This document shows positions 61,911 through 62,440 of a stretch of DNA of 64,000 nt, piece by piece. The stretch's first letter is position 1, and each line of letters begins with the position of its first letter. The notes beneath the pieces are model-generated. The model did no database searches and was not told where the DNA came from. It was given only the letters and a program-made list of their open reading frames with translations. Source of the stretch: Escherichia phage Turkey3; sequence record PQ471515.1. One strand, given 5' to 3'. A program made the translations under genes and the position numbers.

Positions 61911-62440
61911 ATCCTGAAAGGTTCCATATGGAAATGATTGAAGCCTAATCCACTCGAAAAGTAGAGGGTAGATGAGTAGTCCTTTCAGTACGAACAGCAA
62001 ATGAAACCCGTTAGATGATGGCATAGTTTGAACCACTCACGGCAATGCGGCTGTATAAAGAACTCCAATAGGATAAAGAGAGTTCCTCGATAGACATATA
62101 AGGATCGCACCTTACCAATTATCTAAGGGAGATTTCATGAGAAATTTGCGGTCGTAATTTATACAAAATAGTTGCGTCCAAAATTCGTGAAATCAAATAC
62201 AAGTACTGGTCATATGGTATTTGTATTATGTGTCGGGATGTTTAAGACCGACGACCGTTGCTACAAGAACCGCGATAGAGAGAAACAGAGCAACCCGCTT
62301 TCGCCTCGTAAGAGAATTCGTGATATGAACTATGTGAAGGCCACCAGCGTCAAACTTTTTTGTTCTTTCCCCTGCGGGGGGATGAAATATGCTCAAGCAA
62401 ACCCCGTCAATATTAATTAAAACAAATCATAGTACTTTCG
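61911..62440. other. non-coding, GC-richer block without credible ORF (possible structured RNA)
   Basis: No ORF with RBS; composition differs from flanks; bounded by terminator and promoter. Confidence 0.3.

Follow-up and report, generated by a model that had tools for sequence, protein, structure and literature searches.

A candidate gene for a large structured non-coding RNA in Rak2-like jumbo phages and enterobacterial islands

Positions 61911-62440 of a 64,000-nucleotide stretch of Escherichia phage Turkey3 (PQ471515.1; this whole stretch is called the window) hold a block in which no gene is apparent. The window is part of an Asteriusvirus jumbo coliphage of the 121Q/PBECO4 group. Over the region, identity is 100% with Escherichia virus TH47 and 93-99.9% with vB_Ec-M-J, PBECO4, 121Q and phAPEC6. 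The initial annotation described the block as richer in guanine and cytosine (GC) than its surroundings, free of open reading frames (ORFs) with a ribosome-binding site and bounded by a strong terminator and a promoter; a structured non-coding RNA, a degraded gene or a mobile-element scar were its candidates. Much of this description stands. The GC content is 0.40-0.46 inside the block against ~0.30-0.37 in the flanks, a GC-rich stem (CCCCTGCGGGGGG) lies at 62369-62381, and the interval contains mechanical ORFs only, the longest of which (62172-62420) starts with TTG and has 82 amino acids. Both boundary features are also present: a terminator scan finds a hairpin of 12 base pairs at 61876-61904 followed by a T-run, and a consensus scan finds a sigma-70-like promoter (TTGAAT-17-TATAAT) at 62441-62469. 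The layout and the limits have to be redrawn, since the hairpin is situated 3' of a promoter that belongs to the block itself (61845-61873), and the real unit begins with this promoter, 5' of 61911, and ends near 62411. Sequence comparison makes it likely that 61845-62411 on the + strand is the complete gene for a large structured non-coding RNA of ~530 nt, and very likely that a structured RNA gene of a new family is found here.

How widely is this block distributed? A BLAST search against 50,697 phage records matched it in 70, all of them Rak2-like jumbo phages, at four to five separate places per genome; every Rak2-like genome has the family, with four paralogues in Asteriusvirus and five in related genera. 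The matched phages infect Escherichia, Salmonella, Klebsiella, Cronobacter, Serratia, Erwinia, Yersinia, Pectobacterium and Xanthomonas, and the loci are mostly unannotated in their records. About 480 nt of the block are retained at ~70% nucleotide identity across phage genera. Comparison with related genomes, which had been proposed as a check, found the block to be better conserved than most of the neighbouring DNA. Most of the 121Q genome was fetched for the copy search, and its copies are located at 90.3, 192.8 (the orthologue of the window copy), 247.5 and 326.7 kb. All four lie on the + strand, share 72-73% identity with the window copy and occupy gene-free gaps of ~0.6-0.8 kb, one of them overlapped by a small annotated minus-strand ORF. 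To widen the set, IMG/VR, a collection of one genome per species and metagenomes were scanned with patterns, and profile and covariance-model searches were then run; the set finally comprised more than 90 matches, ~80 of them distinct, including metagenomic jumbo contigs.

About five lineages can be recognised among the paralogues and are met again at syntenic sites from genus to genus; the copies are therefore ancient and under maintenance, and not decaying. Within a genome the copies share one strand, as was the case in all six genomes checked (121Q, Ga0164306_10000001, AGFT01054919.1, Ga0308166_1000037, Ga0308168_1000032 and Ga0308169_10000037). The same holds for the copy flanked by EndoVII and the baseplate hub gene, where the RNA is opposite in strand to both neighbours; with 21 loci, this site is the most widely conserved one.

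The alignments show invariant blocks that alternate with stems changing by compensatory substitutions. RNAalifold, applied to the raw MAFFT alignment, recovered local hairpins only, because the variable arms are misaligned. Manually assigned helices, two covariance models built from them (R1 and R2) and pair counts were used in its place; all members were realigned to the models, and pairing partners slid by 1-3 columns served as the control. In the 5' domain (P1-P5), 95.3% of cells are paired compared with 28-51% for slid partners, and 20 of 28 pairs have changed on both sides. The model of the 3' domain contains P8, P9 and P11-P14 plus two pseudoknots written explicitly. Here 96.0% of cells are paired in 26 distinct sequences, and alignment A6, with 80 distinct sequences, gives 95.1% against 36-45%, with 38 of 46 pairs compensatory. 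For the central region, an unfitted MAFFT alignment (A7) has 89.2% of cells paired against 30-45%. G-U pairs are frequent in the counted helices and the folding z-score is -2.83 on the + strand versus -1.07 on the - strand, which therefore assigns the RNA to the + strand. With covariation in at least 14 helices and three pseudoknots, and a conserved promoter of its own in front of each copy, the structured RNA is the one of the three earlier candidates that is strongly supported. Neither BLAST nor either covariance model found a second copy within the window. Matches to a degenerate core pattern in L073, L079 and L096, contigs of metagenome-assembled genomes from Verrucomicrobiae and Paludibacteraceae, were confirmed by neither covariance model and are either chance or very divergent relatives.

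At least 14 helices and three pseudoknots are predicted for the RNA, distributed over three structured regions (Table 1). Conserved strands within the P3-P5 domain (GAAACCCGUUAG and CACGGCAAUGCGGC) accompany an arm that is free to vary: the whole of P5 is swapped for a UUCG tetraloop (CCG-UUCG-CGG) in L010 and L016 and for a larger alternative arm elsewhere. The central region contains the invariant strand CGAUAGACAUAUAAGG. The core (62257..62329, + strand) is the most conserved part of the RNA and includes the near-invariant strands GACCGUUGC and AUAGAGAGAAACAGAGCAACCCGCUUUCG. The 3' strand of PK1 lies just 3' of P11, and the two strands read AUUGUAU/AUACAAU, GUCGAAU/AUUCGAC or AUUGCAU/AUGCAAU in different copies and UCAUAU/AUAUGA in the window. 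The P14 hairpin is weak, its register shifts among copies and 79.7-86.9% of its cells are paired.

Table 1. Positions of the candidate RNA gene and its predicted parts in the window, with the pairing observed among aligned copies
Feature	Position	Strand	Observation
Candidate RNA gene, whole unit	61845-62411	+	Promoter, fold, conserved tail
Promoter	61845..61873	+	-35-like TGAGAC 61845-61850, 17-nt spacer, extended -10 TG-A-TATAAT 61865-61873
P0, 5' hairpin and U-run	61876..61909 (hairpin 61876-61904)	+	Terminator scan; first helix of minimum-free-energy fold
5' three-way-junction domain	61914..61988	+	Model R1, alignment A3 (25 distinct sequences)
P1	61914-61921 with 61981-61988	+	98.3% paired, 7/8 pairs compensatory
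P1a, variable hairpin	61922-61933	+	In three-way-junction domain
P2, bulged hairpin, conserved loop GAAAA(N)GUA	61945-61955 with 61964-61971	+	96.9% paired, 7/8 compensatory
Conserved single-stranded AUGAG	61972-61976	+	In 5' domain
P3, enclosing P4 and P5	61994-61998 with 62050-62054	+	100% paired, 3/5 compensatory
P4	62008-62011 with 62039-62042	+	100% paired
P5, variable arm	62019-62021 with 62033-62035	+	In P3 domain 61994..62054
Central region	62060..62131	+	Plain MAFFT alignment A7, 33 sequences, fitted to no model
P6 hairpin	62060-62065 with 62080-62085	+	6/6 pairs compensatory
PK2 pseudoknot	P6 loop 62071-62075 (GGAUA) with 62120-62124 (UAUCU)	+	89.5% paired, 3/4 compensatory
P7 hairpin	62099-62103 with 62110-62114	+	Alignment A7
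Invariant UAAGGGAG	62124-62131	+	PK2 3' strand directly 5' of UAAGGGAG
Optional peripheral insert, long stem with UACAA...GUUGCGUCCAAAAUU module	62132..62192	+	Alignments
P8, long hairpin	62196-62206 with 62217-62227	+	A6: 98.1% paired, 11/11 compensatory
PK1 pseudoknot	P8 loop 62209-62215 with 62323-62329	+	A6: 98.6% paired, 7/7 compensatory
P9 hairpin	62232-62236 with 62248-62252	+	In region 62196..62252
P10, crossing P11 (pseudoknot)	62257-62261 with 62290-62294	+	100% paired, 3/5 compensatory
P11	62271-62275 with 62318-62322	+	98.4% paired, 5/5 compensatory
P12	62278-62282 with 62298-62302	+	100% paired
P13, GUAA loop cap	62305-62307 with 62312-62314	+	86.2% paired, 3/4 compensatory
P14 region, then U-run 62356-62361	62333..62361	+	Conserved CCAYCAKCGUCAR
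3' hairpin UUCUUUCCCC-UGCG-GGGGGAUGAA	62363-62386	+	C4/G6 hairpin, pattern search
Conserved tail CAAACCCCGUCAAU	62398-62411	+	Probable 3' end region of RNA

The peripheral insert is kept in some copies and is a short GNRA-capped hairpin in others. Its sequence-conserved module of ~30-45 nt (..GUACAAUAUAGAUCCGUCCAAAAUU.. and variants; 62140-62185 in the window) also occurs at the tip of P13 in L026, L010, L005, L008 and others, and the Serratia fonticola copy (L076) has it at both sites. The insert looks like a portable structural or binding module. Arm swaps at the periphery (UUCG or larger arms), GNRA caps and an insert with two possible sites are behaviour that would be expected for a real RNA.

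A second repeated element is the CGUCAR motif, which is found in the 3' arm of P14 (62345-62353) and in the tail (62403-62411), at the same positions in all copies. The R seems to switch in parallel at both sites, CGUCAG/CGUCAG or CGUCAA/CGUCAA according to lineage. Such a doubling could mean that one partner binds at two sites, or that alternative pairings form. A pairing of the 5' linker with the CGUCAR tail was also considered and is unsupported, as duplexes within a copy (-10.3 kcal/mol) compare with -9.9 kcal/mol for duplexes across copies.

The promoter at the 5' end of the unit scores 10/12 in the consensus scan, with TG ahead of the -10 (TGATATAAT for the extended -10 of the window). 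A TGRRAC-N17-TGnTATAAT/TATACT box lies upstream of all 68 unique copies inspected, from phages and bacteria alike. The P0 hairpin belongs to the transcript of the RNA because this promoter sits upstream of it, and it is probably the terminator for the preceding gene as well. In the window, the -35-like TGAGAC overlaps the TGA stop (61845-61847) of an upstream ORF of 285 amino acids, and the -10 box follows this stop and precedes the hairpin with its U-run; this arrangement suggests that one hairpin may have two roles, terminating the upstream gene and forming the 5' structure of the RNA. The order of promoter, hairpin plus U-run and P1 is common to unrelated lineages in which the hairpin sequences are unalike (differing hairpins occupy the P0 position in L135, L143, L116, L137, L139, L144, L106, L154 and L081).

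At the other end, a pattern search finds the C4/G6 hairpin in 70 of 73 unique copies, and the alignments show it retained despite sequence changes in phage and bacterial copies. The tail that follows, AAAYCYCGUCAR, is present in every aligned phage and bacterial copy; it is conserved at the nucleotide level, while the reading frame across it varies among copies. The wide conservation of hairpin and tail therefore places the end of the gene near 62411, just 5' of the next promoter. An extra terminator-like hairpin follows P14 in 32 of 70 unique other copies, and the window copy retains only the U-run of this element.

Could the element be a cis-acting regulatory RNA, that is, a giant leader, an attenuator or a processive-antitermination element for the genes downstream? 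Co-oriented genes follow most copies, many copies have a hairpin and U-run at the 5' end or before the C/G hairpin that might be regulated terminators, and the two occurrences of CGUCAR could form alternative pairings. Against this, the RNA of the window is followed by a separate sigma-70-type promoter (62441-62469) before the next gene begins, the best-conserved copy runs antisense to its neighbours, and the downstream genes differ at every paralogous site; in the bacterial islands described below, the RNA converges on a CI gene. A riboswitch or cis leader was rejected on these grounds, the RNA is not the leader of the downstream gene, and cis regulation in general is very improbable. The comparison of copies argues instead for an RNA-level fold under purifying selection that has the promoter as part of the unit and is independent of the identity and orientation of its neighbours.

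Does the locus encode a protein? Across 73 unique homologues, the longest ORF varies in strand and position, with a median of 70 amino acids against 61.5 in shuffled sequences. The lengths of the elements are evenly spread modulo 3 (20/27/26), and conserved nucleotide blocks are read in different frames among copies. A protein-coding gene or pseudogene was rejected, given ORFs at the shuffled expectation, no conserved frame or position and lengths without a bias to threes. Two small ORFs fared no better. One, which follows a Shine-Dalgarno-like AAGGGAG with an ATG, is not conserved, and the same stretch forms a hairpin in other copies; the other, of ~12 codons after the G6 run, shifts frame or stops early among copies. 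Small hypothetical coding sequences are nonetheless annotated over the RNA loci in many GenBank records, with strand and frame differing between records. Examples are EcMJ_153 of vB_Ec-M-J (L001 6591-6713), gp516 of 121Q (L005 7799-7954, minus strand), g047/g048 of Yersinia phage fHe-Yen9-04 and records labelled 'hypothetical protein (x3-x7)'. These are most likely spurious calls inside an RNA gene.

The initial annotation had also allowed for decay, and a decayed protein gene or the scar of a mobile element (an insertion sequence, a group I/II intron or a homing-endonuclease remnant) might be read into the hypothetical coding sequences annotated at the locus in several records, and into the HNH endonuclease genes within a few kb of two 121Q copies. 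Neither version agrees with the comparative data. A degraded gene is at odds with ORFs that are no longer than chance and unconserved in strand, position and frame; a scar is at odds with paralogues at syntenic sites across genera, all of which keep the complete fold under compensatory evolution. Group I/II introns give no model match, and there is no exon context, because the upstream ORF stops (61845-61847) before the element and the element has a promoter of its own. Decay in either form is hardly credible.

The RNA matches none of the known families searched. An Rfam covariance-model scan, the other check proposed at the outset, was run against Rfam 15 (4227 covariance models) and gave no match for the whole window at the gathering threshold, as the RNA family is not in Rfam. 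Scans at E<=10 of three divergent members, the window copy, a Pectobacterium phage CBB copy and a Serratia fonticola copy, returned chance matches only (for example a terminator, microRNAs, small nucleolar RNAs, and ZTP on the wrong strand). ARAGORN found no transfer RNA (tRNA) or transfer-messenger RNA (tmRNA) anywhere in the window. Keyword and exact-sequence searches of open-access text returned no description of the RNA; judged by Rfam 15 and the searchable literature, the family is apparently undescribed.

The RNA is not confined to phages. Bacteria also have full-length copies, complete with promoter, both domains, C/G hairpin and tail; among them are Serratia fonticola, Serratia sp., Silvania, Buttiauxella and Enterobacter chinensis. 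In E. coli the RNA is present in 2 of 5426 complete genomes, where a ~10-kb island located between ffs and ybaA has it in a 1.4-kb gap without annotation. The island copies are single and lie in small integrase/CI/Cro islands of Enterobacteriaceae with a common layout: integrase, RNA, a convergent CI-like S24 repressor, a Cro-like helix-turn-helix protein, a 286-amino-acid protein and an LprI-like protein. Some islands have a tyrosine recombinase as their integrase and others a large serine recombinase, so that the constant companion of the RNA is the CI/Cro block and not one type of recombinase. The 286-amino-acid protein ('A') has no Pfam or PHROG family, and its relatives are hypothetical proteins of Enterobacteriaceae only. 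It has a hydrophobic, apparently membrane-spanning N-terminal region, and nothing marks it as a replication protein. A tblastn comparison of the island proteins with ~300 kb of 121Q and other jumbo-phage loci indicated no protein partner shared by phages and islands. It gave two matches only: one to an ADP-ribosylglycohydrolase, with a host gene as the query, and one to a DUF4326 protein encoded at a distance from all RNA copies.

The proximity of island copies to integrases is one of the observations that might suggest a structured element acting at the DNA level, such as a signal on the + strand for single-stranded DNA initiation, packaging or recombination. The co-orientation of all copies of a genome points the same way, and strand-specific covariation with G-T wobbles would also fit single-stranded DNA. 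Such an element would not be expected to keep a promoter as part of the unit in every copy, GNRA and UUCG caps and pseudoknots are typical of RNA, and the variable integrase type means that the element is not tied to one recombinase. A DNA-level function is, on balance, highly improbable.

A more serious competitor, and the main one, is an element of a replication origin, in which the structured transcript would form a persistent RNA-DNA hybrid and prime the leading strand. There are established precedents. ColE1 RNA II is a folded primer RNA of ~550 nt, and T4-type phages begin replication from promoter-dependent R-loops at several dispersed origins. Like these, the RNA is driven by a promoter, is several hundred nucleotides long, depends on folding and has G- and U-rich segments near its end. 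The jumbo phages have four to five dispersed, co-oriented and syntenic copies in genomes of ~350 kb, and the strand is kept even beside opposite-strand genes; each copy has a strong promoter, and a G6 run stands beside a U-rich stretch. The islands have no recognisable replication protein, and their copy might allow replication without an initiator of their own or by way of the phage replisome. The ColE1 and T4 primers are not known to require a pseudoknotted, deeply conserved tertiary architecture, and this is where the RNA differs from them: three covarying pseudoknots and near-invariant strands exceed what an R-loop primer is known to need. In addition, the sequences read showed no iterons, DnaA boxes or specific unwinding element, although no dedicated search for them was made, and the islands, being integrated, may not replicate autonomously at all. 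A role in origin firing is accordingly considered unlikely.

Which function would then account for the fold? We lean towards an RNA that acts in trans, as a ribonucleoprotein (RNP) or in the manner of a ribozyme. The host sigma-70 RNA polymerase would start at the extended -10 promoter, near 61880. The transcript would fold into the 5' hairpin, the P1/P1a/P2 junction, P3-P5 and P6/P7 with PK2, and its 3' part into the doubly pseudoknotted core P8-P13 (PK1 and the P10/P11 crossing), the C/G hairpin and the conserved tail. In phages the RNA would be made from the start of infection and in islands constitutively, and it would accumulate as a stable and abundant molecule. Acting through its invariant joining strands (GACCGUUGC, AUAGAGAGAAACAGAGCAACCCGCUUUCG, CGAUAGACAUAUAAGG, UAAGGGAG) and the GAAAA-GUA loop, it might form the core of an RNP or be a ribozyme. 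A conserved host component is the probable target, given that the RNA is common to islands and to phages of different hosts and that no neighbouring or co-occurring protein is.

Several points weigh against this interpretation. For a trans-acting mechanism, the searches gave no partner protein, ligand or substrate. The transcription start, the 3' end and the stability of the RNA are inferred; the 3' end in particular is placed tentatively, given the terminator-like hairpin upstream of the C/G hairpin in almost half of the other copies. In the window, the hairpin and U-run almost directly 3' of the promoter could abort most transcripts. Two of the three covariation tests use alignments fitted to the models built here, which leans them towards the structure, and the shuffle control overstates significance because the copies share ancestry. 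Both the controls with slid partners and alignment A7, fitted to no model, lessen this bias.

Among known systems, the RNA most invites comparison with ROOL and GOLLD (RF03087, RF01998). All are longer than 500 nt, with many helices and pseudoknots, highly conserved joining strands, independent transcription and no known biochemical function, and are borne by phages or integrated elements. There are also differences. ROOL and GOLLD are usually found beside tRNA genes, whereas the located 121Q copies do not adjoin annotated tRNA genes; their hosts are mostly Firmicutes and rumen or lake metagenomes, in contrast to the enterobacteria and the Xanthomonas phages seen here, and they do not share the pattern of four to five conserved paralogues per genome. 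The RNA matches none of the covariance models of ROOL, GOLLD, OLE and raiA at E<=10, and resembles these RNAs only in kind, as a large, pseudoknotted RNA associated with mobile elements. Cryo-electron microscopy of ROOL and GOLLD has revealed homo-oligomers made of RNA alone, according to one report (PMC12286853). By analogy, the PK1 loop and its distant matching 'code' strand could in principle pair between molecules. It is tempting to speculate that the RNA is the founding member of a new 'ornate' class of large RNAs that serves giant lytic phages as well as small integrated islands, either a new ribozyme or a particle that self-assembles through an intermolecular PK1, and acts on a conserved host machine; we regard this as a tentative idea that is rather doubtful as it stands. 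If it were true, the machine might be translation, RNA turnover or a defence system, addressed during phage-host conflict, and the five paralogue lineages would have been kept because each has a distinct specificity.

Abundant transcripts without ORFs do exist in the wider phage group. RNA sequencing of PA5oct, a Pseudomonas jumbo phage distantly related to the Rak2-like clade, identified four ORF-free + strand transcripts of 236-619 nt (ncRNA001-004) that resemble nothing known, two of which each make up 1-5% of the phage reads during infection (PMC7318152). One of them, ncRNA004, is on the + strand and adjoins - strand structural genes. Searches of three of the four loci (ncRNA001, ncRNA002 and ncRNA004) with R1 and R2, filters off, detected no homology and reached at best 7-9 bits (E ~0.3-0.4), and the likeness to the PA5oct transcripts is one of analogy only.

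Two further RNAs deserve comparison. The phi29 pRNA, of ~170 nt, is single-copy and restricted to phi29-like podoviruses, and a covarying loop-loop complementarity drives its assembly into a ring. It offers an analogy as a structured RNA encoded by a phage and working in trans, and no similarity between it and the RNA was detected. Type A RNase P RNA is alike in its size class, its pseudoknots and the short words CCACGACC..GUGC and AGAGCAA(A/C)CCGC, which fall in the region that binds the tRNA elbow. This candidate was rejected: cmscan gave no match, seven members compared with E. coli rnpB scored no better than shuffles (z -0.7 to 1.8), and the P4, CR-I and CR-V architecture of RNase P is absent from the RNA.

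Very few classes of large RNA with complex conserved tertiary folds have been recognised. Those with a known function, namely ribosomal RNA, RNase P, tmRNA and self-splicing introns, are nearly all central machines of the cell. As a candidate for a new class of large structured RNA, the RNA described here is strong and open to experiment, and its comparative support is unusually clean. It can be tested directly in E. coli, because it resides in cultured coliphages of relevance to therapy (121Q, PBECO4, phAPEC6 and relatives). The four to five paralogues that each genome has kept over long evolutionary distances argue for an important and non-redundant role, and the sharing of the RNA with integrase/CI/Cro islands of Enterobacteriaceae hints at a role in the conflict between phages and other mobile elements. 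On the practical side, the spurious small 'hypothetical proteins' affect many GenBank records.

Some observations concern the genes around the copies. In Eneladusvirus-like jumbo phages and their metagenomic relatives, an ADP-ribosylglycohydrolase gene (PF03747, E=6e-69; L026 6897-7730) lies at most ~1 kb downstream of an RNA copy, and it is present at equivalent positions in L018, L023, L016, L010, L033, L050 and L054, in several of them immediately downstream. Among the island proteins that have a homologue in jumbo phages, only the DUF4326 protein is encoded by a gene of the island itself: the E. coli island copy (L080 22997-23590) is 41% identical over 109 amino acids to 121Q gp497 (L003 41088-41405), which adjoins nrdD/nrdG. 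The sites of the islands vary, beside thiM in L071 and beside ffs in E. coli (L080). In Serratia fonticola (NZ_CP183218, L076), two tandem rof genes of 87 amino acids each (4775-5038 and 5227-5490) flank the RNA-bearing end of the island, which suggests that the island integrated into rof and brought a replacement copy with it.

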